Shown here one piece after another: positions 17,707-35,999 of a DNA stretch of 35,999 nt. Source of the stretch: a virus (lineage: Duplodnaviria > Heunggongvirae > Uroviricota > Caudoviricetes); IMG/VR virus record IMGVR_UViG_2541047899_000011; one strand, 5' to 3'. Each line of letters begins with the position of its first letter. Positions within the stretch are counted from its first letter, which is position 1. A program made the position numbers and the translations under genes. Under the pieces are notes generated by a model. The model had not been told where the DNA came from, searched no databases, and saw only the letters and a program-made list of their open reading frames with translations.

Positions 17707-17798
17707 GTGGCCAGAAACGCGCTGTAATCGCCTTTGACGACATAAACGCCTCACGGATGAGGCATTACAGCACCGCATCCCATAAATGCCGTCAGAAT

Positions 17799-17823: not shown

Positions 17824-17859
17824 GTTTTATTTCCCATTTTATCCTTTCGCGTTATGGCA

Positions 17860-17876
17860 GGGTGCTGAACACCCTC
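17860..17876 (+). promoter_or_regulatory. late-leader motif copy 2 (GGGTGCTGAACACCCTC), upstream of the I gene
   Basis: 15/15 identity with copy 3 over GTGCTGAACACCCTC; small GGGTG-ctgaa-CACCC hairpin. Confidence 0.4.
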
Positions 17877-17906
17877 CACAGTACCCCGTGTTCCCCTTCC
17901 GTCATC

Positions 17907-19445: not shown

Positions 19446-19455
19446 GGAGCAAAAC

Positions 19456-20364
19456 GTGTTAGTCAACGTTAAAAACGTCAAACAGATTTTTATCAATCTG
19501 AAGGCCACCTTCCAGAAAGCCTTCGACCAGTCGCCAACTGACTGGCAGAAGGTGGCAATGGAAGTGCCATCAAACGGCAAGGAAAACGACTACAGCTGGT
19601 TAAGTCGTTTCCCGAAAATGCGCGAGTGGATTGGTGACAAGGTCGTCAAATCACTGGCGGCATTTAACTACACCATCCGTAACAAGGACTGGGAAGCCAC
19701 GGTTGAAGTCGATCGTAACGACATCGAGGACGACCAGATTATGGGCTATGCCCTTCAGGCGAAAGGAGCCGGACAGTCGGCAGCAGAGCTACCGGCAGAT
19801 ATTGTGGCGTCCCTTATCAGTAACGGTTTTACCAATCTCTGTTATGACGGTCAGCCGTTCTTTGATACCGACCACCTGGTCGCCGGTAAATCGGTGTCCA
19901 ACAAAGGCACCAAAAAACTCAAAGTTGGTTCGCTTGCCGAGGCGAAAGCCTCCTACGGTGCCGCCCGTACATCCATGCGCAGCCTGAAAGATGACGAAGG
20001 CGCATCCCTCAAAATTCGCCCGAATCTGATGGTTGTACCACCGGCGCTGGAAGATGACGCGAACTACCTGATGACCGCCGAGAAGTTCCCGGACGGTACG
20101 CCGAACCCGTACCGCAACACCGCCGACGTGCTGGTGATGCCGGAGCTGGCGTCGGATTCTGCGTGGTTCCTGTTTGACACCACCAAACCGGTGAAACCGC
20201 TGATTTATCAGCTGCGTAAAAAACCTGTTTTTGTGGAGCAGACGGACTACAACAGCGACAACGTGTTCAAGCGTAAGAAGTTCCTGTTTGGTGCCGAAGC
20301 GCGCTGTAACGGTGGTTACGGCTTCTGGCAGATGGCGTTTGGCTCTGACGGTACGGAGGAATAA
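19456..20364 (+). CDS. major capsid protein (Mu T-like)
   Basis: GTG 19456 lies 6 nt after AAGGAG; alternative upstream starts GTG 19414 / ATG 19420; sequence and position match the Mu major head subunit. Confidence 0.85.
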   Translation: MLVNVKNVKQIFINLKATFQKAFDQSPTDWQKVAMEVPSNGKENDYSWLSRFPKMREWIGDKVVKSLAAFNYTIRNKDWEATVEVDRNDIEDDQIMGYALQAKGAGQSAAELPADIVASLISNGFTNLCYDGQPFFDTDHLVAGKSVSNKGTKKLKVGSLAEAKASYGAARTSMRSLKDDEGASLKIRPNLMVVPPALEDDANYLMTAEKFPDGTPNPYRNTADVLVMPELASDSAWFLFDTTKPVKPLIYQLRKKPVFVEQTDYNSDNVFKRKKFLFGAEARCNGGYGFWQMAFGSDGTEE

Positions 20365-20366
20365 GG

Positions 20367-20708
20367 ATGGCAAAAGTGATTGAGATTACCGCCCGCCGTG
20401 AGGGGTTTCGCCGCTGCGGTGTGGCACACAGCGCAACCACGAAGGCATGGCCTGCGGATGCGTTCACACCAGAACAACTGGCGGTGCTGAAGGCTGACCC
20501 CATGCTGATTGTGGTGGAACGTGATAAAGCGTCCGGCCAGAACGACGCGGCCCGGGGTGATGAGCTGGCCGCACAGCTGGATGCCGAACGCCAGAAAGTC
20601 AGCGAACTGACGGCGCAACTGGAAGAAGAACGCCAGAAAGTCAGTGAACTGACCGCACAGCTGAACGCCGCACAGAAAACACAAAAAGCGGACAAAAAGG
20701 AGAAGTAA
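20367..20708 (+). CDS. hypothetical head-region protein with internal 14-aa tandem repeat
   Basis: 113 aa; contains ERQKVSELTAQLEE / ERQKVSELTAQLNA encoded by a 42-bp direct repeat. Confidence 0.6.
   Translation: MAKVIEITARREGFRRCGVAHSATTKAWPADAFTPEQLAVLKADPMLIVVERDKASGQNDAARGDELAAQLDAERQKVSELTAQLEEERQKVSELTAQLNAAQKTQKADKKEK
20586..20669 (+). repeat. two copies of a 42-bp direct repeat inside gene 20367-20708
   Basis: GAACGCCAGAAAGTCAG(C/T)GAACTGAC(G/C)GC(G/A)CA(A/G)CTG at 20586 and 20628. Confidence 0.7.
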
Positions 20709-20711
20709 CCC

Positions 20712-21143
20712 ATGTCTTACGCCACACCGGAACAGTTCATCAGGGCGTTCAGTGAACGCGAGGCACGCACACTGACGGATGAAGACATGACAGGATTCAT
20801 CGACGAAGAAAAACTGGCCTCCGCGCTTGCGCGCGCCAGTGCCCAGATTGATGGCTATCTGGTGGGGCGTTACCGGACCCCGTGGCCTGACAGCCCGGGG
20901 ATTCTGGTGGGTTACTGCTGCGATATCGCCCGCTATCACCTGGCGACCGATTACCGTATCAGCTCAGAAGAAATTCAGATGCGCTACCGGGACGCCATCC
21001 GCTATCTGGAGAAAGTCGCGGCAGGACAAATCAACCTCGGGCGGGATACGTCCGGCAGCGTGATCCAGTCATCGTCACAGGTGCGTATCCGCTCCGGCTC
21101 CCGTCAGTTCGGGCGTGAGTCCACGCGGGGAGGTGCATTCTGA
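20712..21143 (+). CDS. Mu gp36-like protein (DUF1320)
   Basis: 143 aa; conserved position after the capsid gene. Confidence 0.7.
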   Translation: MSYATPEQFIRAFSEREARTLTDEDMTGFIDEEKLASALARASAQIDGYLVGRYRTPWPDSPGILVGYCCDIARYHLATDYRISSEEIQMRYRDAIRYLEKVAAGQINLGRDTSGSVIQSSSQVRIRSGSRQFGRESTRGGAF

Positions 21144-21778
21144 TTACTGAAATTGAACGGGCGCTGGTTGAACGTCTGCGTTGTGGTCTGGGGCATATGG
21201 TGCGGGAAGTCCGCACCTATGCCGGTGAACTGGATGAAGACCCGGGCCGGATTGTTCGCAGCCTTCCGGCAGCCTGGGTGACGTTCGGCGGCATCGTGAA
21301 AACCGAACGCTATTCCACGTCACGCCGGAAATACATTGCCACCGGACGCTTTGTGGTTGTGGTGGGTGATTACAACACCCGCAGCGAACAGAGCGCCAGA
21401 CAGGGAGGCACCGTCCGGGATGAGGTCGGGACAAACCAGCTGGTTGAATCCGTCCGTCGCCTGCTGACCGGTCAGGATTTGGGGCTGGAGATTGATTATT
21501 TCGAACCCGGGCGGGTCAGGACGCTGTTTAACACCGGCGTGGCAGAGCGGGCAATGTCCGTGTTTGCCTGTGAGTTCGATACCCGCTGGGTGGAGCACGC
21601 GCTGGAGAACGGCAAATGGCCGGAGCGTGGCGCAGAAGCGGACCGCCTCTTCAACCGCTACCACGGCAGGCTGTCAGACCCGGATCCGGATTTACTGCGA
21701 ATTGGTACGCAATACGGCGCAGATATCTGTGGTCTGGATGAATTAAGAGAGCAACAGCATGAACAAAATGAAGGTTAA
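21140..21778 (+). CDS. Mu gp37-like protein (DUF1834)
   Basis: Start uncertain: first ATG is at 21197, but the frame is open from 21140 (CTG) and encodes a plausible N-terminus ITEIERALVERL. Confidence 0.6.
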   Translation: MITEIERALVERLRCGLGHMVREVRTYAGELDEDPGRIVRSLPAAWVTFGGIVKTERYSTSRRKYIATGRFVVVVGDYNTRSEQSARQGGTVRDEVGTNQLVESVRRLLTGQDLGLEIDYFEPGRVRTLFNTGVAERAMSVFACEFDTRWVEHALENGKWPERGAEADRLFNRYHGRLSDPDPDLLRIGTQYGADICGLDELREQQHEQNEG

Positions 21779-22001
21779 GGCGGCTCCCGGGATGAAGTTC
21801 CCGATGGAGGATAACGCCCGGAAATACATCACCACGGAAGCGGTGACCGTTGAGAACACCGCTTATTACCGGCGCGCCGTTCAGGACGGTGACCTGATTC
21901 TGGTGAAGGATGAGCCTGAAACCACCGTGACGGCTGAACAGGACGCCGTGCAGGTAAAAGCGAAGGCGAAGAGAGAGAAACAGGTGGATTCCGATGAGTG
22001 A
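21759..22001 (+). CDS. Mu gp38-like small protein (DUF2635)
   Basis: 80 aa immediately upstream of the sheath gene. Confidence 0.65.
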   Translation: MNKMKVKAAPGMKFPMEDNARKYITTEAVTVENTAYYRRAVQDGDLILVKDEPETTVTAEQDAVQVKAKAKREKQVDSDE

Positions 22002-23415
22002 AATTCAGTTTGACACCATTTCGGGCGGCATCCGTAAGCCCGGCGTGCATTTTGAGTTTAATACCCGGCTGGCCGTTAACACGCTGCCGGGTAATGAACA
22101 GCGTGTTCTGGTGATTGGCCCGATGCTGTCAGGCGGCACCGCCACGCCCCTGAATGCCGTTTCCGTGTATTCCGAAGACGAAGCGGATGTGTATTTCGGG
22201 GCCGGTTCGCTGGCCGCTGCAATGGCGCGCGCGGCCATTAATGCCAACAGCTATCTGCAACTGGATGTTATCGGTATTGCAGACAGTGGCGCAGGAAAGG
22301 CGGCAACCGGCGCAGTTACCGTCAGTGGCACGGCAACCAGCAGCGGCACGCTGTCGGTATGGGTTGCCGGTGAGCAGGTCACGGTGGATGTGGAAACCGG
22401 TGATGAACCGTCGAAAATCATTCCGGCACTGGTGGAAGCAATGACGCAGACGCCCTCGCTTCTGGTGACGGGGGAATACAAATCGGAAGCCTCTCAGCTG
22501 ACGGTGACCACCCGGACCAAAGGAGCCTGGGGGAATGACATCACCCTGTCAGCATCCACCACGGCAGGTGGTCTGACCGTGAGCGCCACGCCGATGGCGA
22601 ACGGTGAAATGGACCCGGATATTCAGCCCGCACTGGATGCGGTCTTTGCCGCCGGTCACAACATTCTGATTTGTCCGTTCAGTACCACGCCAGCCCTTGC
22701 CGCCCTGAAGCAGCATCTGGAGAAAACCGGGAACGCGATGGAACAGCGCGGCGCGATTGGCTGTGCGGGCTGGACGGGCAGTCTCGGAAACGGGATCACC
22801 CTGGCAGCCGGTGTGAACAGCGGGCGCGTGTCCGTCCCCTGGTATCGCGGCTCCGTGAAGCTGCCAGCGGTGCTGGCCGCCATCTACGGCGCTGTGATGG
22901 CGGGCGAGGAAGACCCGGCGCGTCCGCTGAACTCGCTGGCACTGTCCGGGCTGGATGTGGTCGCCATGTCACAGCGTGAAAGCCGTAACGAGCAGGAAAA
23001 CGCCCTGCATAATGGCCTGACGCCGGTTGAGGTTGGCCCGGGTAACACGGTACAGATTGTGCGTGCGGTCAGTACGTACACGGTTAACGCACAGGGCGTG
23101 ACTGACGTCTCGTTACTGGATATCACGTCCATCAGAACGCTGGACTACACCCGCAAGGCGTGCCGCGAACGCATCAGCCTTCGCTTCCCGCGCGAAAAAC
23201 TCAGCACCCGCACTATCGCAAAAGTGGAAAGCGAACTGTATGACGTGCTGATCAAGCTGGAGGAAGCGGAGATTCTGGAGAACGTGGAAGCGAACAAGGC
23301 AAAGCTGCGCGTTCAGCGAAACGGGAAAGATGCAAACCGTCTCGACTGCGTGGTTCCGGCGGATGTGGTTAACGGCCTGCATGTGTTTGCCGGTCGCATC
23401 GACATGATTTTGTAA
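21994..23415 (+). CDS. contractile tail sheath protein (Mu L-like)
   Basis: 473 aa; size, order and sequence typical of a myovirus sheath. Confidence 0.85.
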   Translation: MSEIQFDTISGGIRKPGVHFEFNTRLAVNTLPGNEQRVLVIGPMLSGGTATPLNAVSVYSEDEADVYFGAGSLAAAMARAAINANSYLQLDVIGIADSGAGKAATGAVTVSGTATSSGTLSVWVAGEQVTVDVETGDEPSKIIPALVEAMTQTPSLLVTGEYKSEASQLTVTTRTKGAWGNDITLSASTTAGGLTVSATPMANGEMDPDIQPALDAVFAAGHNILICPFSTTPALAALKQHLEKTGNAMEQRGAIGCAGWTGSLGNGITLAAGVNSGRVSVPWYRGSVKLPAVLAAIYGAVMAGEEDPARPLNSLALSGLDVVAMSQRESRNEQENALHNGLTPVEVGPGNTVQIVRAVSTYTVNAQGVTDVSLLDITSIRTLDYTRKACRERISLRFPREKLSTRTIAKVESELYDVLIKLEEAEILENVEANKAKLRVQRNGKDANRLDCVVPADVVNGLHVFAGRIDMIL

Positions 23416-23427
23416 GGAGCGCGGTAA

Positions 23428-23802
23428 ATGTCCATTAAAGAATATGTCGGCTCGATTGTGCTGGAGGTGGACAGCCAGGAAATCGAGATCACCGACTTCG
23501 ATGTTCAGATCAACACCGGGCGAAAGCTGGTCAAGACCATGAACAAAACCGGCAGGGCCAAAGGCTTTGCCCGTGGCATTGCCACCTACGATATTTCAGT
23601 TTCGGCGGTTATCCCTGATACCAACGAGCCGGACTGGGAAAATCTGGAAGGTGTGAAAATTTCAATTTATCCGCTCAGCAACAGCGGTAAGCGCACCTCC
23701 TATCTGGACTGCTTCACTGTTGAAGTGGGTGAGAAATACACCGTCGACAGTGAAGCGAAAATTGATATCAAAATGGCTGCACTCAGGAAGGTGACAGGAT
23801 GA
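23428..23802 (+). CDS. tail tube protein (Mu M-like)
   Basis: 124 aa directly after sheath. Confidence 0.8.
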   Translation: MSIKEYVGSIVLEVDSQEIEITDFDVQINTGRKLVKTMNKTGRAKGFARGIATYDISVSAVIPDTNEPDWENLEGVKISIYPLSNSGKRTSYLDCFTVEVGEKYTVDSEAKIDIKMAALRKVTG

Positions 23803-24182
23803 CTTTGATTAATACACAGACCGGCGAACTGTCTGATGGCGTGGTATTTAACGGCACCGTTCATAAAAACTTTGAGCTGCGTCTGCCGGTCATGCGTGAT
23901 AACGGGCAGGCACTGGAAGAAACGGAAGAACGCTTTCAGACGGTGGACGGCTTCGCGGCAGATTATTACTACCGTTGCGCAGTGATGGCGGCAACGCTGG
24001 TCCGTCTTGGGGATATCCCGCAGGAAGAACTGACGGCGGATCTGTTGCACGACAACATGACGCCGGACGATTTTAATATTCTGCTGGCATCACGCAACGT
24101 CCTGAAGGTAAAGCGGAACGGCGGGAATCCCGGCTCGCCGGACTCCGGCTCGCAGTCCTTATCCTCGGGCGCTACGGAATAA
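23799..24182 (+). CDS. tail assembly chaperone (upstream frame)
   Basis: 127 aa between tube and tape measure; the -1 frame is open across its 3' end. Confidence 0.7.
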   Translation: MTLINTQTGELSDGVVFNGTVHKNFELRLPVMRDNGQALEETEERFQTVDGFAADYYYRCAVMAATLVRLGDIPQEELTADLLHDNMTPDDFNILLASRNVLKVKRNGGNPGSPDSGSQSLSSGATE

Positions 24183-24196
24183 CCGAAGAGCAAATC

Positions 24197-24355
24197 ATGA
24201 CCATGAGCCGTCCCGAGCTGGACGGCTGGCTTGCCGCCGTTGACAGGCTGAACGGCGGCGGCTCAGGAAGAAAGGACACCTCACAGACCACCCGCCAGTC
24301 ATTTAAATCCCTCAGAAAGAAACGCAGAAAAGGTAAGCAGAAAAATGGCCGGTAA
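24197..24355 (+). CDS. small basic ORF in the -1 frame; possible frameshift extension of the chaperone or independent 52-aa product
   Basis: -1 frame open from 24077 to 24355; ATG at 24197; basic C-terminus KKRRKGKQKNGR; overlaps the tape measure start. Confidence 0.35.
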   Translation: MTMSRPELDGWLAAVDRLNGGGSGRKDTSQTTRQSFKSLRKKRRKGKQKNGR

Positions 24356-26618
24356 TTTCAAAGTTGGCATGACCCTGACTGCGAAGGACGAAGCCTCGCA
24401 GGTTCTGGAAAAGGGACAAAAACAGGTTATCAAAGCCACCGAAGGTGTAACAAAGGCAACCCGGAAGGCAGGCGCAGAGCAGAAGCGTACCGGGCAGGAA
24501 AGCATTAACAGCACGAAAAAGGCCGCAAAAGAGATACAGCGTGCCGCCCGTGCCCGGGAAACGCTCGGTATTCGTGCAGAACGCGAGATCCGGCGTGAAA
24601 TTTATCTGACGGTTGCCAGTTATAACCGTCTGGCCCGCGCCGGTTTTGAATCTGCGCAGGAGCAGGAGCGCGCCATGCAGGCCACCCGGGAAAAAGCCCG
24701 GGCACTCAAGCGTGAACTGGATGGCGTTACTCAGGCTCAGATGAAGATGGCGAAAACGCCTGTTATCCCTGAACGGGGGCGTTTTGCCCGTGCGGCTGCA
24801 TTTGGCGGGAATGCCGTGACAATAGGCGGTGGTATTGCAGCAGGTGCTGCCATTATGGCGCAGCCGGTCAAAAAGCAGATGAGCTACGAACGCCAGCTGG
24901 CAATGATGGCCAATACCGCCTTCAGTGATGGCGGTCTGGAGGGGCGCAGGGCTGGTCTTGAGCAGATGAAAAGCAGCATCCGTAACGCGGTGACCTATGG
25001 CGGCGGTACGAAAGAAGACGCAGCCGAAACGCTGGATGCCCTGCTGAAAGATGGCGGTATTTCATTTGAAACAGCCAGTAAGTGGCTGCCTGAACTGATG
25101 AAATACGCCACGGCTTCCGGTGCATCAGCGACAGACCTGGCTAATGTGATGCTTAAGGGTAAAAAGACCTTTGGATTCAGGGATGAAGATATTTCCACCG
25201 TTCTGAATATGGCGATTGCGGCAGGAAAAGAAGGCAGCTTTGAACTGAACGATATGGCCCGCTGGTTATCCCAACAAATGGGATCTGCGTCAGCTGCGGG
25301 AATGAAAGGCAAGGATGATTTCGTCAAGATTCTTGCACTGAATGAAGCCGCCGCCATCACGGCGGGAAGCAGTGATGAAGCAGGGAATAACGTGGTTAAC
25401 CTGCTGGCCAAACTGACCAGCCATGATATTGAAACTGCGGCAAAGAGCATTGATTACAACGGTAAAGGGATTGATTTTTCAGGTACGCTGACTGAAGCGC
25501 GCAAGCATGGACTGGATCCGATAGACGCGCTTTCCAGCCTGATAGATAAAATCGTTGCCAACGATAAACGCTATCAGGAGTTGCAAAAGAAACTGTCATC
25601 TGCCCGGGATAAAGGTGAACAGACGGCTGTTTACGATTCGATGGCAAAACTCCTTGAAGGCTTTGGTGTCGGGAAACTGGTTGCAGACCGTCAGGCGTTG
25701 ATGGCGTTGTTAGCCTACCGTAACAACCCGGAATACCGTAAGAAGGTTGAAGACGCGATTAATCAGCAACGTACCCTGCCGGAAGGCCAGCGCGCGGGGG
25801 ATGTTGATTTCAGATTCATATCCGGCCTCAATGACTTTAAAACCGAACAGGCTAAAAACACGCTTGAATTTTCACAAATGGACAGCGTGAAAAAGCTGGC
25901 TGATGCGTCCGGTGCTGTGGCCGATGCCATAAGCTGGGCGGGTGAAAAGTTCCCGGGACTGACCACGGCAGTGGTGGGTGCCACGACCGCCATTGAAGCG
26001 ATGACCGCAGCGGCCCTGACATGGGCCGGGATCAAAATCCTGACCGGGGGTAAACCCGGTGGCAAGGCTGGCGAGGTTGTCGGTGATGTCATTGAAAACA
26101 CGGTCAAAAAAGGCAAAGGATTTAAATTCCCCGGCATCGCCGGTGGCCTGCTTTCTTTCGGTGGCACCGTTACGGCACTGGCCACCGCAACCAGCCCGGA
26201 AGAAGACGCCGCCGTCGAAGGAAGCGAAGAACGCTGGAAACGCATCCGCGCCCGATATCCCCAGGAAATCATCGACGCCGCCCGCAAAAAATACCAGCCG
26301 TGGTGGCAGTTTGGGGAAGGCTATTCCACCGAAAACGAAGAATGGTTGAGGCGCTGGGAGGAAGACAGGAAAAAAGCCGCAGCTGATGCCCTGCCATCAC
26401 CGGCGCAGGTCAACAAAGCCGCCGGAAACACAACGCCTGAATCAGCATCAACGCAACCCGGACGCATCACCCAGCCGGAATACCTCACGCACTGGGGACC
26501 ACCTGCCAGCCCCATTAATTTCACCACACAACTGGTGCTCGATGGTCAGGTCGTGGCGGAAGCGGTGAATAAATACAACCTTCAGGACGGCAACAGAGGC
26601 ACGGGAGGAACTTACTGA
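24345..26618 (+). CDS. tail tape measure protein
   Basis: 757 aa, Ala/Gly-rich helical protein after the chaperone pair. Confidence 0.85.
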   Translation: MAGNFKVGMTLTAKDEASQVLEKGQKQVIKATEGVTKATRKAGAEQKRTGQESINSTKKAAKEIQRAARARETLGIRAEREIRREIYLTVASYNRLARAGFESAQEQERAMQATREKARALKRELDGVTQAQMKMAKTPVIPERGRFARAAAFGGNAVTIGGGIAAGAAIMAQPVKKQMSYERQLAMMANTAFSDGGLEGRRAGLEQMKSSIRNAVTYGGGTKEDAAETLDALLKDGGISFETASKWLPELMKYATASGASATDLANVMLKGKKTFGFRDEDISTVLNMAIAAGKEGSFELNDMARWLSQQMGSASAAGMKGKDDFVKILALNEAAAITAGSSDEAGNNVVNLLAKLTSHDIETAAKSIDYNGKGIDFSGTLTEARKHGLDPIDALSSLIDKIVANDKRYQELQKKLSSARDKGEQTAVYDSMAKLLEGFGVGKLVADRQALMALLAYRNNPEYRKKVEDAINQQRTLPEGQRAGDVDFRFISGLNDFKTEQAKNTLEFSQMDSVKKLADASGAVADAISWAGEKFPGLTTAVVGATTAIEAMTAAALTWAGIKILTGGKPGGKAGEVVGDVIENTVKKGKGFKFPGIAGGLLSFGGTVTALATATSPEEDAAVEGSEERWKRIRARYPQEIIDAARKKYQPWWQFGEGYSTENEEWLRRWEEDRKKAAADALPSPAQVNKAAGNTTPESASTQPGRITQPEYLTHWGPPASPINFTTQLVLDGQVVAEAVNKYNLQDGNRGTGGTY

Positions 26619-27967
26619 TGGGCTGGGCTGAAAACCTGCAAAACGCCTCCTTTCGTGGCGTGCAGTTTGATGTACTGAACACGGATGAACAAATTAGCCG
26701 CGACCATGCGGTCTATGAATACCCGTTTGTTGACGGGGCGGATTTGCACGACCTCGGGCGCAAGGCGCGACCGTTCCGCATGACGGCGTTCCTGTGGGGG
26801 GAGTATTACGAATATAAACTCGAAAAGCTGATCGCCGCCCTGGACGAAGGCGGCGATGGTGAGCTGATTCACCCGGTTTACGGCTCCGTACCATCGGTGA
26901 TTGTGACCGGCTACAGCATCCGCCATGACGCAGAAAGCCCGGACAGCTGCACCATCGACATGAGTTTTCTGGAGAACCGCACCGGCAGCGCGTTGTTCAG
27001 CACCCCGTTACCGGAGCTGTTTGCACAGCAGTTATTTGAAGAACTGGATAAGTTACTGGCACAGTTAAGCGAATTATTTGACGCTGTTACGGCCCCTTTA
27101 AAGACCATTAACAGCGTGATTAAAAAAATCCAGACAGTGCGCGCCACACTGGTAAATACCCTGCTGACGTTCAAAAGCGATTTTCTCTCATCCATCGACA
27201 ATATGATGTCGCTGGCCAGCGAACCCGGGAAATTTATTGGCGGGCTGGCAGAGGTGCTGGAAATCCACACGTCAGATGTCGGGCACGCGGTGCCGGTGCT
27301 GGAGCGTACTGATTCCGCCACCACGACCGGACTGACCGGGGAAGACAGCGTCGCCAGTTCTGCGACAGTGATGACCTGCTGGAATGAGGTGATGGCAGAT
27401 ATGGATGAGCTGGTCGCGCTGCCGGTCGCACTGGTCAGCGGTGATAAAACGCCGTCTGTGGCACTTCCGCCGGATGCGTCCGTGGAAGACGTGCAGGACG
27501 TGAAAGCGGCTTATGCGGTTCTGGCGGCCTCAGAGCTGGCCAGCGTGGCGACAGCGATACTGTCCGATGAAGCCCAGTCAGAACAGCTTATACCGGCGGA
27601 TATCGGGCGACTGGTCGGGGATGTGCGCACCCGCTTACAGGCAACTATCACGCTGTTCCGTGAACGCTATGAAGGCGAACGCGAACGGATAACCGAAACC
27701 GCATCACCGCTGGGGCTGATGTACCCGGAAATCATTCAGAGCATGAAGAACGTGGCGGCATCCGTGCAGGATGTCGGTCTGCTGGTTCTGTCACGCCGCC
27801 CACCGCTGACGCAGAAACAGGTGCAGGCGGACAGCTGTCTGCTGTTGCTGGCGTGGCAGTGGTACGGTGATTACAGCCGTGCGGCAGAGCTGCAACGTCT
27901 GAACCCGCAGCTGCGTGACCCGAACAACATAACCGCCGGGATGGTGATTAATGCCTATGCAAAATAA
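26618..27967 (+). CDS. DNA circularisation protein N-like tail protein
   Basis: 449 aa; resembles the Mu N family; conserved position after the tape measure. Confidence 0.75.
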   Translation: MGWAENLQNASFRGVQFDVLNTDEQISRDHAVYEYPFVDGADLHDLGRKARPFRMTAFLWGEYYEYKLEKLIAALDEGGDGELIHPVYGSVPSVIVTGYSIRHDAESPDSCTIDMSFLENRTGSALFSTPLPELFAQQLFEELDKLLAQLSELFDAVTAPLKTINSVIKKIQTVRATLVNTLLTFKSDFLSSIDNMMSLASEPGKFIGGLAEVLEIHTSDVGHAVPVLERTDSATTTGLTGEDSVASSATVMTCWNEVMADMDELVALPVALVSGDKTPSVALPPDASVEDVQDVKAAYAVLAASELASVATAILSDEAQSEQLIPADIGRLVGDVRTRLQATITLFRERYEGERERITETASPLGLMYPEIIQSMKNVAASVQDVGLLVLSRRPPLTQKQVQADSCLLLLAWQWYGDYSRAAELQRLNPQLRDPNNITAGMVINAYAK

Positions 27968-29162
27968 CGACGACAAAATCAGCCTGGTCATTGCCGGAAG
28001 GTCGCATTCTGACTGGAGCAGTTATCGTATTGACAGCGATTTCCTGAAAGCCGCCGACGGCTGGCAGCTTCAGCTGGGACTGCCTGAAAAGGTGTTCCCG
28101 GCGGATATCGTCCGGGGTGCGCCGGTCCGTTTGCAGGTGGGAGACGAGACGGTGCTCAGTGGGCGCGTGGACAGCGTGCGCCGCAGTGTATCCCGTCAGA
28201 GCTGCACGCTGACCCTGTCCGGGCGTGATGATGCCGCCATTCTGGTGGACTGTGCCGCGCCGGTGTTCAGCGCCAATCAGCTGACGCTGGACGAGGTCAT
28301 CGACAGGATTGTCAGACCGCTGGGGATACAGCGCATCCGTATTCAGGCGTCCGGTGTGTCACGTAATGACAAGGTCGTTATAGAGCCGGGGATGCGTGCG
28401 TGGGATGCACTGGCTAAAGCTGCCGCCGGTCGCGGCTTATGGCCGTGGTTTGAGCCTGACGGGACGCTGGTTGTGGGTGGCCCTGACTACACCACCACGC
28501 CGGTGGATACACTGATTATGAAGCTGGACGGCACCGGGAACAACGTGATGGAGCTGGACGATACCCGGTCCATTAACGGCTGTTTCTCCGAGCTGACGGT
28601 GCTGGCCCAGAGCCACGCCCGCCGCGCAGACAGCAAGAAACAGGTGGCCGTGGTGCCGCTGGATATCTGGAACGAGGACGGCAGCGTGCGCACATTATCC
28701 GGGCAGGACAGCGGTAATACAGGCAGTGGTCAGACAGGCATTCATAACATGAAAGCCGTGGCCACCGACCCCACCGTGGATTATTACCGCCCGCAGATAA
28801 TCACCCAGGGCGACACCAGCAACATGGAGCAGGTGAACTGGCGCGCCAAAAAAATGATGAGTGATGCCCGCCTGTCGGGGCTGGATATCGTCGCACTGGT
28901 TGCAGGCCATCGCACGGCGGACGGTGTCCTGTGGCAGCCCGGCCAGCGTGTGCGGATTGTCAGCGAACCCCACGGCATCGATGCCATCTTTTTTCTGATG
29001 GGGCGTGAGTTCAGCGGAGGCCGGAGCGGGCAGACAACCCGGCTCCGCTTTAAGGAGGATGGCGTGTGGATACCTGATGCCTTCCCGCGCGAGAAGAAAC
29101 GCCATCACCGCAGGGGCAAAAAGAAAAAAGAGGTCGCCATTGTTAAGGTCTGGGAGAAATGA
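27951..29162 (+). CDS. tail/baseplate hub protein (Mu P-like)
   Basis: 403 aa; Mu P-like by order and sequence. Confidence 0.75.
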   Translation: MPMQNNDDKISLVIAGRSHSDWSSYRIDSDFLKAADGWQLQLGLPEKVFPADIVRGAPVRLQVGDETVLSGRVDSVRRSVSRQSCTLTLSGRDDAAILVDCAAPVFSANQLTLDEVIDRIVRPLGIQRIRIQASGVSRNDKVVIEPGMRAWDALAKAAAGRGLWPWFEPDGTLVVGGPDYTTTPVDTLIMKLDGTGNNVMELDDTRSINGCFSELTVLAQSHARRADSKKQVAVVPLDIWNEDGSVRTLSGQDSGNTGSGQTGIHNMKAVATDPTVDYYRPQIITQGDTSNMEQVNWRAKKMMSDARLSGLDIVALVAGHRTADGVLWQPGQRVRIVSEPHGIDAIFFLMGREFSGGRSGQTTRLRFKEDGVWIPDAFPREKKRHHRRGKKKKEVAIVKVWEK

Positions 29163-29812
29163 TGTGGGACAAGGTTAATCAGCGCATACAGCAGGCACTG
29201 GCCGCCGTTCGCCAGGCATTCAGGGTGGTGACCGGTACGGTAGACAGTTCTACCAAAGTACAGCTACTTCAGCTGAACGGGCTGGCAGGCGAACAGCTGG
29301 ACGGTGCGGAGTATTTCCAGCATTACGGCCTCACCACATCCCCGCCGCCCGGCTCAATGGGTATTGCCGTTCCGCTGAACGGTAATACCTCCCATACCGT
29401 CGTCGTGGCCACAGAGCACGGCGCATATCGCCTGACGGAACTGAAACCCGGCGAGGTGGCCCTGTATACCGACGAAGGCGCGAAAATCGTACTGAAGCGC
29501 GGGCGGATTGTTGAAACCGAATGTGACGTTTACCGGGTGAAATGCAAACGCTATGAGGTTGAGGCAGAGGAGAACGCCGCATTCACGACACCGTTACTGA
29601 CGGCCAGCGATAAGCTGACGGTGGAAGGTAAAATCACCGGCAACGGTGGCATGGCCATCAGTGGGGGCAAGAAATACGCCGCCACCTTTGAAGGCAACAT
29701 CAACCATGTGGGTGGTGTGATTACCTCCGTTGACGTCACCATTAATGGCGTTAAAATCGGAACGCACAAACACCCGACCCCACACGGCATGTCTGACACG
29801 CCGGTTAATTAA
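29159..29812 (+). CDS. baseplate assembly protein V / spike (Mu gp45-like)
   Basis: 217 aa; gpV-like N-terminal region. Confidence 0.75.
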   Translation: MMWDKVNQRIQQALAAVRQAFRVVTGTVDSSTKVQLLQLNGLAGEQLDGAEYFQHYGLTTSPPPGSMGIAVPLNGNTSHTVVVATEHGAYRLTELKPGEVALYTDEGAKIVLKRGRIVETECDVYRVKCKRYEVEAEENAAFTTPLLTASDKLTVEGKITGNGGMAISGGKKYAATFEGNINHVGGVITSVDVTINGVKIGTHKHPTPHGMSDTPVN

Positions 29813-29828
29813 GTGCTGAACACCCTCA
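29811..29828 (+). promoter_or_regulatory. late-leader motif copy 3 (AAGTGCTGAACACCCTCA), upstream of gp46-like baseplate gene
   Basis: Begins 1 nt after the gp45-like stop; about 45 nt upstream of the next start codon. Confidence 0.4.
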
Positions 29829-29865
29829 CCTGATTCTGACCTGCCCATGCTGCCAGACTGGCGGC

Positions 29866-30216
29866 ATGGACCAGACGATTTCACCTGCAACCGGCGACTA
29901 CGAACGCCGCCGGATTTATACACTCCATAACGCGGTTTATCTGCGACTGGCGACACCGCTTGGCAGTTACTGGGCGGATGCGTCGCTGGGGTCACGCCTG
30001 CACGAACTGAAGCGGGAAAAAGACGTTTCCCGTGTTCACAGGCTGGCGGCGCAGTATGCCAGCCAGGCACTTCAGCCCCTGCTTGATGACGGGCGGGCAA
30101 AATCCATTACCGTTGACACGAAAGCGGGCCAGCGCGGCTGGCTGTTGCTGTTAATCACCGTCACGGATAACGCGGGCACACCGCAGACGTTTGAACACCC
30201 TGTGAGGATTATGTAA
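29866..30216 (+). CDS. baseplate protein (Mu gp46-like, GPW/gp25 fold family)
   Basis: 116 aa preceding the J-like baseplate protein. Confidence 0.7.
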   Translation: MDQTISPATGDYERRRIYTLHNAVYLRLATPLGSYWADASLGSRLHELKREKDVSRVHRLAAQYASQALQPLLDDGRAKSITVDTKAGQRGWLLLLITVTDNAGTPQTFEHPVRIM

Positions 30217-31295
30217 TGCCGTTTCCTGTTCCGGGCGTTGCTGAAAACACAGAACGCCAGCTACGTGATATCGCTAACGCTCTGCCGGGAGAAACCATCG
30301 ACACCGGCGCTGACAGCGACTACCGCATTCGTGCAAATGCTGTATCCGGCGTGGCGGAGGGGCTTTTTATGCATCAGGGATGGATCCTCCGTCAGGTGTT
30401 TCCTGACACGGCAGACCCTGAATATCTGGAGCTGCACTGCCGCACGCGCAATGTTTTTCGTAAAAAAGCAACGGCCTCATCCGGTCAGGCAGTGATTACC
30501 GGCACACCCGGTAAGACGCTGCCAGCCGGTGCGGAAATTCGTGGTGAAGGTGTCAGCGTGGCCACCACAGCAGACTGCACCATCGGTGATGAAGGCAGCG
30601 CAGAGGTGACGGTAAAAAGCACCGCTACGGGGGCACAGACGAACGCATCCGCGACGCAGACGGCAACGCTGGTCAGTCCGCCGGAAGGCATCAACAGCAC
30701 GGTGACGATTAAATCCCTGACCGGCGGAACGGACAGGGAAAGCGACGCTGACCTGCTGGCGCGTTATCTGGATATTCTGCGCAGGCCGCCCGCTGGCGGT
30801 AATAAATATGATTACAAACGCTGGGCGCTGGAAGTGGATGGCGTTACGTCTGCATATGTGGAGCCATTGCGCAGAGGGAAAGGTACTGTTGATGTGGCTA
30901 TTACGTCAGCCAATGACCTCCCCTCGCAGGAACTGATCAATGCCGTGCTGGCACATATTGAGGAAGTCCGCCCGGTTACAGCGAAGGACACGATGGTGCT
31001 GGCACCGACGAAAAAAGCCGTTGATTTCGTTGTCCGGGTAAAAACCAGCGGCCTGACCGTTGAGCAGATAAAACCGCAGATAACTGACGTTATCACGGAT
31101 TTTATGAACCGACTGGAGCCGGGGCAGGAATTAATTATTTCACAACTGGAAACCCAGATTTCACTCATTTCCGGTGTGAGTGACAGAAAAATAATCACGC
31201 CTGACGGGAATGTAAAAGCCGTGATTAATGCGTCAACGTGGGAATGGCTGCGCCCCGGAAATATTGATATTCAGCCTTTTCCGCGTGAGGGGTGA
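30216..31295 (+). CDS. baseplate J-like protein (Mu gp47-like)
   Basis: 359 aa; baseplate J family by sequence and order. Confidence 0.8.
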   Translation: MPFPVPGVAENTERQLRDIANALPGETIDTGADSDYRIRANAVSGVAEGLFMHQGWILRQVFPDTADPEYLELHCRTRNVFRKKATASSGQAVITGTPGKTLPAGAEIRGEGVSVATTADCTIGDEGSAEVTVKSTATGAQTNASATQTATLVSPPEGINSTVTIKSLTGGTDRESDADLLARYLDILRRPPAGGNKYDYKRWALEVDGVTSAYVEPLRRGKGTVDVAITSANDLPSQELINAVLAHIEEVRPVTAKDTMVLAPTKKAVDFVVRVKTSGLTVEQIKPQITDVITDFMNRLEPGQELIISQLETQISLISGVSDRKIITPDGNVKAVINASTWEWLRPGNIDIQPFPREG

Positions 31296-31298
31296 TTC

Positions 31299-31871
31299 AT
31301 GAATATGGTCGATTTATTTCGCGCCATGCTGCCGCCGGTCAGTTATGACCTGAACGGGAAATATATTTCCGCGGAGCTGACAGCCGAGGCTAACGTCATG
31401 GAGGCCGTGAAGGCCTCAGCAGCGCGCGTTCTGGCACAAATCACCCCGTTGCAGGCATCGATGACGCTGTCCGACTGGGAGCGCGTGTACGGTGTTGTCC
31501 CCCGTGAAGGGGCAACCCAACAGGAGCGGCGGCAGAACATCCTGGTAAAAATGGCGGCAACGGGCGGGCTGTCCATTCCCTATTTTAAAAATCTGGCCGC
31601 AAGCCTGGGATACACCATAACGATAACCGAACCACGAGCCTTTCGCACCGGGGTAAATCGTTGCGGTGACCGTCTGTTTATCCCTGAAATGCGCTGGGTA
31701 TGGCAGGTCAATGTTATTGGTGCAAAAACGCCGGTATACCGTTTCAGAACGGGCGCATCTGCAACAGGTGAGCCGCTGACGGCCTTTGGTGAATCCATTT
31801 TAGAAAATACCTTTAAAGACCTTAAACCGGCTTTTACAGACTGTTATTTCACGTATGAGGATAAGCAGTAA
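31299..31871 (+). CDS. tail protein (Mu gp48-like, DUF2313)
   Basis: 190 aa between the baseplate J and fibre genes. Confidence 0.7.
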
Positions 31872-32905
31872 TGCAGAATTTAATGCCTCCGGTGAATACG
31901 CCGGATCAATTGTTTCACGATGGTGACCCCACTCAGGGCATTGAGGGCACTATTGTTTATGCTGAACACATGAATAATCAGCAGGGAGCCATTCGTGACC
32001 TGCAACAGGAACTTATTAATTTGCTCCGTGCGGCTGATATATCACCGGACCCGAAGAAACAAAATCAACTGGTTGATGCTATATCGCAATATGTCGGGAA
32101 AAAAGTTCCTGACGCATCATTAACGAAGAAGGGCATCGTTCAGCTCAGTAGCGCAACAGACAGTGATTCAGAAACGGAAGCAGCCACACCAAAGGCAGTA
32201 AAATCACTGGCGGAAAAAATAACAGAATTGCAGGGAGTGGCTTTACCGGTAGGTACCCCAATACCGTGGCCGTCTGATTCAGTGCCACCCGGCTATGCCT
32301 TAATGCAGGGGCAGAGCTTTGATAAAGGCTCTTACCCTAAACTTGCAGCTGTCTACCCATCCGGGATTATCCCGGATATGCGGGGCTGGACAATCAAGGG
32401 TAAGCCTGCCAGTGGTCGTGCTGTATTGTCTCAGGAGCAGGACGGCATTAAATCACACGCCCACAGTGCCAGTGCATCCAGTACGGATTTGGGGACGAAA
32501 ACCACGTCGTCGTTTGATTATGGTACTAAGTCTTCAAATGCCACTGGTGACCATAACCACAACCGAGGCACTATGGAAATTACCGGTACTCTCGGTTACT
32601 TCAGAAGTGATAGCGGTAATTTCTATACAGCAAGTGGAGCATTTACACTGGGTGGCTCTGCGGCAGCCCATGGATTTACGGGTTCTAATTTTACTTATGG
32701 TGTTCCTGTAAACTTTAACGCTTCCAGAACCTGGTCTGGTGTCACAAACACTACAGGTAACCATGCGCACGCCGTTCCAATTGGTGCACATGCACACTCC
32801 GTTGCTATTGGTCCACACGGACACACCATCACCGTTAACGCTGCGGGCAATACGGAAAACACCGTCAAAAACATCGCATTTAACTATATTGTGAGGCTTG
32901 CATAA
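31871..32905 (+). CDS. tail fibre protein with tail-collar domain (Mu S / P2 H-like)
   Basis: 344 aa; conserved fibre box [24 protein letters not shown]; collar-like [30 protein letters not shown]; His-rich C-terminus. Confidence 0.85.
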
Positions 32906-33480
32906 TGACTTTTAAAATGAGCGATAAAGCACGGACCATTCGTGTATTTAATTTTCTTGAAGATACAAAAGAATTTATCGGCAGTAGTGACGCTTATATA
33001 CCGCCTCATACCGGATTACCCGCAAACTGTACGGATATTGTACCGCCGGAAATCCCCGAAGGTTTTACAGCAATGTTTGATACTGCTGACAATTCATGGC
33101 GTCTGGTTGAAGACCATCGGGGGGAAACGGTTTATTCAACAGAAACCGGAAATGCAGTCCCGATATCTGAACTGGGGGAACTTCCTGAAAATGTCACATT
33201 TATTGCACCAGACGGAGAATACCAGCGCTGGGATGGCAGTCAGTGGGTGACGGATGAAGAGGCGAAGCGTGATGCGCTGATTAATCAGGCGGCAGAAAAG
33301 AAAACCAGCCTGCTGAAACAGACTGGAGAACAAATCGCAATCTTACAGGATGCTGTTGATTTTGGTGAAGCAACACCAGAGGAACAGGAGCAACTGACAG
33401 CCCTCAGAAAATTACGAATAAAGTTAAATCGTATTCAACCGGAAAATGCACCAGATATCGACTGGTCAGACTTTGAATAA
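32905..33480 (+). CDS. tail fibre assembly protein (Tfa-like)
   Basis: 191 aa; YIPPHTGLPANCTDIVPPEIPEGF and C-terminal APDIDWSDFE closely resemble the lambda Tfa / Mu U family. Confidence 0.85.
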   Translation: MTFKMSDKARTIRVFNFLEDTKEFIGSSDAYIPPHTGLPANCTDIVPPEIPEGFTAMFDTADNSWRLVEDHRGETVYSTETGNAVPISELGELPENVTFIAPDGEYQRWDGSQWVTDEEAKRDALINQAAEKKTSLLKQTGEQIAILQDAVDFGEATPEEQEQLTALRKLRIKLNRIQPENAPDIDWSDFE

Positions 33481-33488
33481 ATTCCACA

Positions 33489-33509
33489 GCCGCCAGCAGG
33501 CGGCTTTTT
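33489..33509 (+). terminator. intrinsic terminator between the first Tfa and the Stf-like gene
   Basis: GCCGCC agca GGCGGC followed by TTTTT. Confidence 0.65.
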
Positions 33510-33525
33510 ATCATTCAGAGGCTCT

Positions 33526-35406
33526 ATGTCTGTATTAATTTCAGGGGCGCTGATTAATGGCGCTGGCGTTCCGATGGCGGAATGCAAAATTTATTTAGAT
33601 GCACTGGTTAATACCAGTGAAGTGGTCACAGAATCATTTGCGGTTATTGAAACCGATGTAGCGGGACAGTATGCCTTTGAAGCACCAAAAGGCAAATACA
33701 CCGTACACATCAAGCAAAAGAACGGCCCTAAGTGCTGCGTGGGTGACATTTCGGTTTACGACGATTCAAAGCCCGGCACGCTGAACGACTTTCTGACTGC
33801 CCTTGATGAAAGCGATTTAAAGCCAGATGTAGTGAAACGCTTTGAGGAACTGGCGCAACAGGCACAGCAGAGCGCGGAAGCGGCAGCGGAAAGCGAGCAG
33901 GCATCAGACACTGCAAGGAGTGAAGCCATTAATGCAGCCAAAAATGCCCGTCTCCATCGGAATGCTGCATCTTCAGCGGCGACCAGTGCTGAGCAATCGG
34001 CAAATGTTGCACTGGGCCGCGAAAATAACGCTGCCGAATATGCCCGACAGGCTAAAGCCAGTCAGGATGCGAGCGCAGGCAATGCGCAGGAAGCGAAACA
34101 GCACAGGGACGAGGCGCAACGGATAGTTGATGACCTGAAGGGAAGCAATGCTTCCACAACAGAAAAAGGTCTGGTGCAACTCTGTAGTGATACAGACAAC
34201 GACAGCGAAGAACTGGCTGCCACACCAAAGGCTGTCAAAGCCGTCATGGACGAGACGAAAACAAAAGCGCCGCTGGACAGCCCGGCATTCACCGGCACGC
34301 CCACCACACCAACCCCACCGGACGATGCAGCCGGTCTGGAAACAGCGAACGCGGCATTTGTCCGCAAACTGCTCGCTGCGCTGGTTGGCTCGTCACCGGA
34401 AGCCCTGGACACGCTGAACGAACTGGCAGCGGCGCTGGGCCATGATCCGAACTTTGCGACAACGGTCACTAAAGCACTGGCAGGTAAACAGCCGCTTAAT
34501 GACGTGTTAACGGCGGTCAGCCAGATAACACCGGAAGAAAACACACTGCCTTATTTCAGTGCAGAGGGCCGGATTTTACTGGCGCAGCTGTCAGAAAAAG
34601 CCCGCGCATTACTGGCACTGGACACGCCTGAAGCCATGCGCACGGAGCTTGAACTGAAAGCGGCTGCGACGATGGAACCCCAGACCGATATCCGTGACCG
34701 CACACCCGGCAGGCTGGCGCTACCGGGCGCTTTTGGCTTTGGTAAGGCATTCAGTAACACAGAAGCCCTGGCATTTAACGGTCAGGCCGATTTTGCTGAA
34801 TGGCTGAAAGAGGCCACCCCGGGGCGTTATGCGGTCAGTATTGCGGACTCTTCCACACTACTGGCGGGCACCACGAAATTTAACGGCATCATTGATGTGA
34901 TGTGGTCCCCCTTTGATAACGACGAATCAGATGCAATACGCAAATTCAAAACGTTGCTGTGTTTTAACCAGTATTACGAAGGTGAGCACAGTATTCATCG
35001 CCTGACTTACCGCTGGAGTGGAAACAACTGGAATGCAACAGTAAGCCCCATTATTTACGACGGCGATTCGCTGGCGTTCCTGCTGTCCCGGACGGCGGGC
35101 AACGGCCCGTCCTCATATTACAAATATCCGGCAGTTGGCTCTCTTATTCTCGCTGTCTATCAGGGAACAGCGGCAGGAGATAAGGAAATAAAAATTGGCC
35201 TTGGGGATGTAGTGGCGGGGTCGCGACTTGGTCCTGTGGCTATCGACTGTGCAATTAATAATTCCGGGACATATGTTTCCACACCTTCAGTAAAGGCGGG
35301 TGGTGCTGGGGCATTCAGTTTTCCTGGTCGTTATCAGGCCCTGTCAGGTTATCGTGCAACGTATGGCGACAGAGGCTTTATCTGTTTGTTCGTGCGCATT
35401 GAGTAA
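33526..35406 (+). CDS. side tail fibre protein (lambda Stf-like)
   Basis: 626 aa; N-terminus ISGALINGAGVPMAECKIYL...VYDDSKPGTLNDFL matches the lambda Stf N-terminal domain; internal fibre box [24 protein letters not shown]. Confidence 0.8.
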   Translation: MSVLISGALINGAGVPMAECKIYLDALVNTSEVVTESFAVIETDVAGQYAFEAPKGKYTVHIKQKNGPKCCVGDISVYDDSKPGTLNDFLTALDESDLKPDVVKRFEELAQQAQQSAEAAAESEQASDTARSEAINAAKNARLHRNAASSAATSAEQSANVALGRENNAAEYARQAKASQDASAGNAQEAKQHRDEAQRIVDDLKGSNASTTEKGLVQLCSDTDNDSEELAATPKAVKAVMDETKTKAPLDSPAFTGTPTTPTPPDDAAGLETANAAFVRKLLAALVGSSPEALDTLNELAAALGHDPNFATTVTKALAGKQPLNDVLTAVSQITPEENTLPYFSAEGRILLAQLSEKARALLALDTPEAMRTELELKAAATMEPQTDIRDRTPGRLALPGAFGFGKAFSNTEALAFNGQADFAEWLKEATPGRYAVSIADSSTLLAGTTKFNGIIDVMWSPFDNDESDAIRKFKTLLCFNQYYEGEHSIHRLTYRWSGNNWNATVSPIIYDGDSLAFLLSRTAGNGPSSYYKYPAVGSLILAVYQGTAAGDKEIKIGLGDVVAGSRLGPVAIDCAINNSGTYVSTPSVKAGGAGAFSFPGRYQALSGYRATYGDRGFICLFVRIE

Positions 35407-35420
35407 CAAGGAGATAGAAC

Positions 35421-35999
35421 ATGAAAATCAGAGCGGTAAAGGGCATCAGAAACGCCCATTATCTCGAAAATGGTGCGGTTGACTGCGAGGTGTTATTTGA
35501 AGGTGAAACGGAATTCGTCCCGTATACCGCCATGCAGGACGATAGCGCCCCGACAGGCCAGCACATCTGGGAGGAGCTGCAAAGCGGCAAATGGGGTGAA
35601 ATCGCCCCGTTCACCGTCACGCCTGAACTTATCGCAGCGGCAAAAGATGCCAGAAAGCGGGAAATCGAGGCATGGCGCACAGAACAGGAAGCGAAGCCGT
35701 TCACGTTCGAATGGAACGGCCACATCTGGAACGCTGGCCCCGACTCACTGGCTCGCCTTTATCCGGTGGTGATGGCATCAAAATCCGATACGGCGCGTGA
35801 CGTGATGACGTGGGGTGACGCCGATAATCAACAAGTGAAGATGTCGATGTCAGAGCTCGAAGGGCTGGCTACAGCAATGGCGCAGGCACAGGTTGATCGC
35901 AACGACGAGATTTATCAACGTCAGCGGGAGATGAAAGAGAGGTTGAGCAACCTGGATGATTTGCGCTCAATCAGAGCGATGACGATTAGCAGCAGTTAG
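35421..35999 (+). CDS. putative tail fibre assembly/chaperone protein
   Basis: 192 aa directly after the Stf-like gene; stop codon is the last triplet of the window; family assignment by position only. Confidence 0.55.
   Translation: MKIRAVKGIRNAHYLENGAVDCEVLFEGETEFVPYTAMQDDSAPTGQHIWEELQSGKWGEIAPFTVTPELIAAAKDARKREIEAWRTEQEAKPFTFEWNGHIWNAGPDSLARLYPVVMASKSDTARDVMTWGDADNQQVKMSMSELEGLATAMAQAQVDRNDEIYQRQREMKERLSNLDDLRSIRAMTISSS

Follow-up and report, generated by a model that had tools for sequence, protein, structure and literature searches.

Why a temperate phage should carry two complete tail-fiber genes, each followed by its own chaperone-like gene, and whether both fibers reach the same particle, is the question raised by the right end of a 35,999-nucleotide stretch of viral DNA (IMG/VR record IMGVR_UViG_2541047899_000011; hereafter the window, meaning the whole stretch), which by its gene content is a transposable Mu-like temperate myophage prophage of E. 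coli. An earlier note on this DNA had described two tandem, co-oriented fiber-plus-chaperone sets near the window's end, and this organization is borne out: all four open reading frames are intact and lie on the + strand. We propose that the two receptor-binding fibers are probably displayed simultaneously and that the second set is reached through read-through of an attenuating hairpin between the sets; co-expression, virion incorporation and attenuation are what we infer here from the layout. In favor of this proposal, both sets are not only intact but fully annotatable, and two unrelated alleles of the first chaperone gene each end in a hairpin followed by a T-run.

The first set continues a Mu-type baseplate operon. 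Genes for a baseplate wedge protein of the Mu gp47/P2 J type (30216-31295, + strand; Pfam Baseplate_J, E = 1.8e-67) and one of the Mu gp48 type (31299-31871, + strand; Phage_Mu_Gp48, E = 4.7e-31) precede fiber F1 (31871-32905, + strand; 344 residues; Phage_fiber_2, E = 2.6e-16, and Collar, E = 3.8e-10) and chaperone 1 (32905-33480, + strand; 191 residues), a member of the lambda Tfa/Mu U family (Caudo_TAP, E = 5.5e-33) that also matches phrog_105, annotated as 'tail fiber assembly' (E = 5.9e-83). The gp48 stop and F1 start codons overlap by 1 nucleotide, as do the F1 stop and chaperone 1 start codons. Residues 44-111 of F1 are 41% identical to residues 47-141 of Mu S (E = 1e-13), and the proximal, baseplate-binding part of the fiber can thus be taken as Mu-like. 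For residues 124-344 the match is to the T4 gp37 receptor-binding tip as solved by crystallography (2XGF, E = 3.5e-75); in F1 this tip carries HxH motifs and shares 48% identity with the lambda Stf C-terminal part, and chaperone 1 is 56% identical to lambda Tfa. The distal part is therefore not of the Mu S type, as Mu S carries PF21446 (Gp34_trimer) where F1 has a Collar domain and a T4 gp37-type tip. As judged from these matches, F1 is a mosaic of a Mu gpS-type proximal end, a fiber repeat, a collar domain and a T4 gp37/lambda Stf-type tip, and the label 'Mu/P2-type' that the earlier note had attached to the first set applies to the Mu gpS-type proximal part but neither to the tip nor to the lambda Tfa-like chaperone. 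Two observations on set 1 in other copies may be added. In two relatives (L001 8872-9855 and L002 8872-9906) RefSeq flags the first fiber as an incomplete pseudogene (in STEC316, in two pieces); the reading frame is intact from ATG to stop in both, and the flag looks like an artifact of comparison with longer mosaic fibers. An otherwise identical prophage copy on a metagenome contig (L005 7484-8057) has a frameshifted chaperone 1, called as a gene of 88 residues, the remainder of which is found in another frame by tblastn, reflecting either a sequencing error or a natural knock-out.

The second set consists of fiber F2 (33526-35406, + strand; 626 residues), with an N-terminal phage_tail_N domain (PF08400, E = 2.1e-44) and a Phage_fiber_2 match, and of a DUF4376 protein (35421-35999, + strand; 192 residues; PF14301, E = 3.3e-16) that we presume to be the F2 chaperone or cap. 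PHROG family phrog_2636, annotated as 'tail fiber protein', covers F2 over its full length (E = 2.5e-193). Residues 1-93 of F2 match the N-domain of Ur-lambda Stf (PDB 9E7M, E = 1.3e-15) with 42% identity to lambda, and are followed by an Ala/Gln/Glu-rich segment (residues ~100-205), which we read from this composition as a probable coiled coil, and then by a fiber repeat, a shaft and a tip. The shaft appears similar to that of P2 H, and a structure-database search returned no solved relative of the tip. Judged by these matches, F2 is lambda Stf-like in its first ~93 residues only, while its tip and DUF4376 partner are of another type; the gp37-like tip and the Tfa (Caudo_TAP) partner belong to F1 rather than to F2, so that the description of set 2 as 'lambda Stf-type' is accurate for the anchor and misplaced for the remainder.

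The DUF4376 gene begins 14 nucleotides after F2 and is preceded by a strong AAGGAGA ribosome-binding site. Its product has no detectable profile similarity to Caudo_TAP (hhalign probability 0.4%); PHROG 1807 (241 residues), however, matches both the N-terminal 170 residues of chaperone 1 and the C-terminal 120 residues of the DUF4376 protein, and natural hybrids of Tfa-type and DUF4376 chaperones therefore exist, which suggests that the C-terminal modules of the two kinds of protein are interchangeable. A role in fiber folding has precedent: the DUF4376 protein gp27 of Alteromonas phage V22, encoded just downstream of the fiber gene, is a proven intermolecular fiber chaperone (PMC7289586), a DUF4376 fiber chaperone has likewise been proven in the Mu-like Campylobacter prophage CJIE1 (PMC7882524), and a later paper proposes that DUF4376 proteins act as transient fiber caps (PMC10579305).

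The terminator that the earlier note had placed between the sets is real as a sequence feature. It consists of the hairpin AGCCGCC-AGCA-GGCGGCT at 33488-33505 followed by TTTTTATCATT (to 33515), that is, an intrinsic-terminator-like element on the + strand (33488-33510) with a GC-rich 7-bp stem containing 6 G-C pairs, a 4-nucleotide loop and a T5 run, and its local folding z-score is -4.5 relative to shuffled sequences. Among terminator-like sites in 29-36 kb it ranks first, and the sites listed for 9-29 kb include no comparable + strand element combining a GC-rich stem with an unbroken T-run in an intergenic gap. F2 starts 45 nucleotides past the chaperone 1 stop codon, and the T-run ends 15-20 nucleotides before the F2 start codon, in a gap occupied by the ribosome-binding site. 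The stem is identical in UMNF18 and STEC316, where the flanks and loop vary; another chaperone allele (B1172 and RM9088), only 23% identical to that of the window, has a hairpin and T-run of different sequence in the same place, and in RM9088 a G-C to G-U change keeps the pairing. DNA similarity of these alleles to the window resumes at 33499-33507, in the 3' arm of the hairpin or just past it, and the upstream sequence shared between chaperone alleles thus amounts to only ~20-27 nucleotides, ribosome-binding site included. Because this shared part is so short and starts just after the hairpin, a dedicated F2 promoter is unlikely, and with neither room for nor conservation of a promoter upstream of F2, the gene would have to be transcribed through the hairpin from the late operon.

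These features lead us to regard the hairpin as a partial terminator particular to this lineage, or as a stabilizer of the upstream message at its 3' end, that would lower the dose of set 2. An additional layer may be provided by a predicted outer helix at 33471-33520, in which the last codons of chaperone 1 (CUUUGAAU) pair with AUUCAGAG and enclose the terminator hairpin. The latter segment overlaps the F2 ribosome-binding site, the B1172 allele has a weaker version of the helix, and such a fold could couple F2 translation to that of chaperone 1. An Rfam match to IS009 (23.7 bits, against a gathering score of 117) falls far below threshold and was taken as chance. In the Yersinia similis prophage (L010 8737-9738), the position that the hairpin holds in the window is occupied by a family-2 glycosyltransferase gene inserted between chaperone 1 and F2, which is likely a lysogenic-conversion gene.

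The four-gene layout is not new, as it is already present in genes L54-L57 of phiP27, sequenced in 2002. The order fiber, Caudo_TAP chaperone, PF08400 fiber and DUF4376 gene recurs in phiP27, in phage pPE4 and in a Yersinia similis prophage, several E. coli genomes contain elements closely related to the window phage and arranged in the same way, and the order is also found in degraded Shigella/E. coli prophage remnants beside ipaH. In Shigella flexneri (L011 12019-13845, minus strand; same in L012), the DUF4376 gene of one such degraded copy of the fiber module is immediately followed by a gene for an IpaH-type E3 ligase effector with NEL and LRR domains. We scanned for the anchor domain with one genome per species and judged the upstream flank on loci long enough to show it. 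Copies ~42% identical to F2, of a siphophage type, nearly all stand behind a lambda J homolog (L018 and L047 have none); the copies 58-96% identical to F2, of a myophage type, never stand behind J and are each followed by a DUF4376 gene, the products of which are 55-80% identical among relatives. The myophage-type anchor thus forms a clade of its own, whose members share 58-99% identity with one another and ~42% with siphophage Stf. A protein search with the 110-residue anchor returned only truncated database entries, which inform on host distribution and not on architectures, and the mass-spectrometry-confirmed distal fiber p27 of Serratia myophage BZS1 was discarded as a carrier of the same anchor, having neither PF08400 nor BLAST similarity to F2.

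Conservation of the anchor is set against divergence nearly everywhere else. Comparison of three myophage lineages gives 14-29% identity for J, gp48 and the F1 N-terminus, as against 63-76% for the F2 anchor, and the F2 proteins of phiP27 and pPE4 are almost identical, with 99% identity in the anchor, while BLASTP finds no similarity between the head, neck, tube and baseplate proteins of these two phages. Within the lineage of the window, F2 combines a constant anchor with a variable distal part, ranges from 484 to 992 residues and occurs with or without a DUF4376 gene: in B1172 (L054 4520-6346) and AH19B041 (L058 10479-13457) an F2 of 608 or 992 residues, respectively, is the last gene, and the tips of these proteins presumably fold without a DUF4376 chaperone or carry an internal one. 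A Klebsiella relative has an SGNH-hydrolase protein in the F2 slot. The association of a constant anchor with an exchangeable tip and a matching chaperone therefore points to a receptor-binding protein in use rather than to dead cargo.

We therefore envisage the locus as a receptor-binding module at the right end of the genome, from which both fibers would be built into the virion to give one particle with two receptor specificities. F1, the short fiber, would be joined to the baseplate wedge via its Mu gpS-type part and folded by the lambda Tfa-type chaperone, and F2 would comprise a constant StfN-type Ig-like anchor (of the Stf N-domain kind), a probable coiled coil and an exchangeable distal part folded or capped by the DUF4376 chaperone. 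All four genes would be read from the late tail operon, with gp48, F1 and chaperone 1 translationally coupled through their 1-nucleotide overlaps and F2 and its chaperone reached only by transcripts that pass the hairpin at 33488-33510; acting as a partial terminator (attenuator) or as a stabilizer of the RNA 3' end, the hairpin would set a lower level of set 2.

Several points weigh against this proposal. The searchable literature yielded no expression, virion-protein or functional data for this phage, for phiP27 or for the layout. Incorporation of F2 is not self-evident, because the only docking site known for StfN in lambda, on the tube and gpM, is covered by the sheath in a myophage. The almost identical F2 of phiP27 and pPE4, two phages sharing no other virion-protein similarity, is odd if a specific docking partner is needed. 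A canonical terminator directly upstream, with no promoter behind it, could mean that set 2 is poorly expressed, and since the phiP27 and pPE4 junctions have no significant hairpin (z-score -0.2), attenuation is not general to the layout.

Some of the same observations would be expected if set 2 were carried but unused, as an add-on cassette gained by recombination at the genome end and kept as a fiber-recombination reservoir or left to decay. The upstream terminator and missing promoter, the tube/gpM junction as the anchor type's only mapped site in lambda and the movement of the cassette between phages with unrelated virion proteins all fit such a history, as do the G+C content of both sets (0.47-0.55, against 0.57-0.61 in the remaining tail region) and the degraded remnants in Shigella. 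We nonetheless consider disuse unlikely, as F2 and its partner are intact in all examined non-Shigella copies except RM9088, where F2 is annotated as frameshifted, and the myophage-type anchor is a separate clade, never found behind a lambda J homolog in the loci examined; the conserved anchor and hypervariable tip indicate selection on function, and the DUF4376 gene has kept a strong ribosome-binding site. A choice between the sets by inversion, as between S/U and S'/U' in the G segment of Mu under the control of gin, is suggested by the analogy with Mu, and the earlier note had proposed to look downstream for an invertase gene and inverted repeats, the presence of which would have counted against its own reading. 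We carried out this check, and it argues strongly in the other direction. An exact-match look-up of the last protein places the same prophage in four contigs with three different downstream flanks (a truncated srlD followed by gutM-srlR-gutQ; mltD; and a giant Ig-repeat adhesin gene), and the copies are identical through 82 bp beyond the window and diverge after, which sets the element terminus at ...ACGCGAAGTTACA. The DUF4376 gene is the last phage gene, with the right end 82 bp past its stop codon, and no Gin/Hin invertase, nor Mu gin, com or mom, can therefore follow the window. No inverted repeats flank the sets, the best in 29000-35999 being 27 nucleotides at 70% complementarity and not flanking, and no invertase (resolvase) domain was found in the 26 window proteins scanned against Pfam, a set that does not include all small open reading frames. 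With all four genes on the + strand and the prophage ending at the same point at three independent insertion sites, we reject a Mu G-segment-type switch as vanishingly improbable.

Two further explanations accept that F2 is used and differ on when it is made or where it sits. The hairpin could be an efficient terminator and set 2 be made conditionally, upon the action of a termination-suppressing factor or from a weak promoter inside chaperone 1, which would yield particles with and without F2 and involve no DNA rearrangement. The canonical form of the element (7-bp stem, 6 G-C pairs, U5), its uniqueness in this respect on the late region's + strand and its retention in two chaperone alleles are all in keeping with this idea, and the outer helix predicted at the F2 ribosome-binding site could add translational control. 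Mu late transcription is not known to use an antiterminator, however, and the sole sigma-70-like match in the chaperone gene is weak (9/12, 33064-33093) and lies in sequence that lacks conservation from one allele to the other; the short or interrupted U-tracts (UUUUUAUCAUU; UUUUCAGUU) recall those of leaky terminators, phiP27 and pPE4 do without the hairpin, and conditional synthesis accordingly seems doubtful. Alternatively, F2 might dock on F1 or on F1-bound chaperone 1 instead of the tail, in a branched or serial fiber for which the branching LtfA/LtfB fibers of T5-like phages provide a model. The lack of an adaptor gene between gp48 and the fibers would be explained in this way, and between phiP27 and pPE4 the chaperone (74%) moves along with F2; TfaMu also remains on the tip of the Mu fiber (cited in PMC7289586). 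Between the window and phiP27, however, identity is only 14-24% for chaperone 1 and for the N- and C-terminus of F1, as against 63% for the F2 anchor, so that F1 and its chaperone do not co-vary with F2, and in both solved cases homologous anchors bind protein rings of the tail or neck rather than another fiber; a branched arrangement thus appears quite improbable, and simultaneous display of two separately attached fibers, with set 2 reached by read-through, remains the reading we prefer.

Simultaneous display raises in turn the question of where F2 docks. In lambda, four Stf trimers contribute twelve N-domains to a ring around the tail that touches gpM and the tube protein gpV (PMC12617516). 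We modeled residues 1-110 of F2 with AlphaFold2 (pLDDT 74, moderate confidence) and searched the model with Foldseek, which retrieved the lambda Stf N-domain (9E7M; E = 1.6e-8, TM 0.74) and the N-terminal domain of XM1 gp40 (7KJK; E = 9.9e-6, TM 0.71, 22% identity), both standing apart from a generic transthyretin-like background (next best E = 6.6e-3). In the Vibrio myophage XM1, six gp40 trimers sit at the neck, attached through their Ig-like N-domains to gp4, the head-completion protein, and gp5, the tail terminator, and beyond the anchor the protein continues into a coiled coil of ~100 residues and a tailspike part (PMC10457771). By analogy, F2 may be a neck fiber, with the 18 Ig-like domains of its StfN-type anchors arranged as a collar on the rings of head-completion and tail-terminator proteins, as in XM1 gp40, a possibility that we put forward tentatively. 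Judging by position, the putative neck proteins of the window are those encoded at 20712-21143 and 21197-21778. The precedent of Shigella phage Sf14 (Mooglevirus), which displays two fiber sets at once on a simple Mu-like baseplate and has both proteins detected in virions (PMC11821841), would weigh instead toward a baseplate site, though its fibers use similar wedge-binding N-termini. Co-variation is uninformative as to the F2 partner, as the head, neck, tube and baseplate proteins of phiP27 and pPE4 are all undetectably similar. A neck location would explain the movement of the cassette between phages with otherwise unrelated virion proteins; it would mean that enterobacterial temperate myophages (Mu-like, phiP27-like and pPE4-like) widely carry exchangeable neck fibers encoded at the end of the tail-fiber operon, and that the anchor fold is a portable 'ring-binding' adaptor for siphophage tail tips and myophage necks alike. 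A second Vibrio phage bearing the name, vB_VpaM_XM1 (PP580404; L062 19825-24324), encodes a co-oriented tandem of a 521-residue fiber, a 'tail fiber assembly' gene and an 808-residue fiber, with the P2 H-type N-terminal domain PF12571 on both fibers; it was rejected as the XM1 of PDB 7KJK, as its 808-residue protein matches no PDB chain.

In itself the finding is unsurprising, because database entries for phiP27 and for related prophages of E. coli, Shigella and Yersinia already contained the layout, and dual-fiber phages are already known. Display of two receptor-binding proteins would nevertheless offer broader or two-step host recognition, with consequences for prophage spread in pathogenic E. 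coli and for host-range engineering, and the locus would represent a compact alternative to Mu inversion, in which a second complete fiber and chaperone cassette with a portable anchor is placed behind a terminator-like hairpin. The question it exposes is how an StfN-type anchor, a binder of the bare tube in a siphophage, docks on a sheathed tail and tolerates transfer, and an answer would provide a general adaptor for retargeting contractile-tail phages and tailocins.

The remainder of the window is in keeping with its assignment to a transposable Mu-like phage. It encodes a MuA-type transposase (237-2279), a MuB-type ATPase (2298-3191) and a Mor-family activator (8909-9376), together with a GemA homolog, a holin, an endolysin, a Mu-type portal, a Mu F protein, the tail sheath, a tape measure protein, a DNA-circularization protein and a complete Mu-type baseplate (gp44-gp48); a DNA N6/N4 methyltransferase gene (12024-12764) lies between a DUF1804 gene and a large open reading frame (12709-14406). 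The head genes are nearest to those of D3112/MP22-like transposable Pseudomonas phages (portal 45% identity), among isolated phages Klebsiella phage ST405-OXA48phi1.1 comes nearest (portal 53%), and the first 25 kb have no DNA-level match to any isolated phage in the phage collection searched. Relatives of the prophage are inserted in ydiS, near katE and in tkt, and the variety of insertion sites indicates that it is or recently was active. The 82-bp right end (L004 10580-10661; equivalent in L006 and L007) contains an 11-bp perfect inverted repeat, CAATTCTGGAC/GTCCAGAATTG, and a third copy of TCCAGAA, elements that are probably transposase-binding sites; as the stem-loop at this end has no U-tract, the late operon would lack a canonical terminator at its end. 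Sigma-70 promoter-like sites are depleted in 9001-29000 (2 found, against 9.3 +/- 3.1 expected), which fits activator-dependent late transcription.

Among known systems, phiP27 (NC_003356), an Stx2e phage, comes closest: its Mu-type tail module closes with these four genes in the order seen here (L54-L57), beyond which lie attR and the prophage end, and its F2 anchor and DUF4376 protein are 63% and 75% identical to those of the window. phiP27 is nonetheless integrase-based rather than transposable, its baseplate proteins are only 23-43% identical to the window's, its F1 and chaperone 1 are unrelated alleles and its two sets are not separated by a significant hairpin. With Mu, the window shares the gp44-gp48 baseplate, a fiber gene directly after gp48, a Caudo_TAP-type chaperone and the encoding of two fiber specificities; in Mu, however, Gin selects a second set that lies in inverted orientation and has the constant N-terminal part in common with S, whereas in the window the second set is co-oriented and starts with a complete gene bearing an unrelated anchor, and gin, mom and inverted repeats are absent. 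Lambda (Ur-lambda) has counterparts on both fibers, as residues 1-93 of F2 are homologous to the collar N-domain of Stf, and the F1 tip and chaperone 1 to the Stf C-terminus and Tfa. There, all these parts belong to one fiber, encoded downstream of J, whose docking site is formed by the gpV/gpM rings of a non-contractile tail, whereas in the window they are split over two fibers of a contractile-tail phage and F2 follows a Mu-type baseplate and fiber.

Likewise, the DUF4376 chaperones V22 gp27, phage A5 gp9 and that of CJIE1 resemble the one described here in their size of ~190 residues and their position directly 3' of a fiber gene, although they are distant relatives only and the enterobacterial branch is known from sequence. 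XM1 gp40 has an Ig-like anchor of ~100 residues, matched in fold by the modeled F2 anchor, then a long trimeric coiled coil, to which the Ala/Gln/Glu-rich segment of F2 may correspond, and a receptor-binding part, and serves as a second receptor-binding protein on a contractile-tail phage; judging by its gene number it is encoded far from the baseplate genes, and F2 is known from sequence and a model. Finally, the gp52 and gp53 fibers of Sf14 are adjacent and co-oriented, with 391 and 792 residues as compared with 344 and 626 in the window. Sf14 is virulent, uses a similar baseplate-binding N-terminal motif on both fibers and has no chaperone genes, whereas the window combines two unrelated anchors with one chaperone per fiber.

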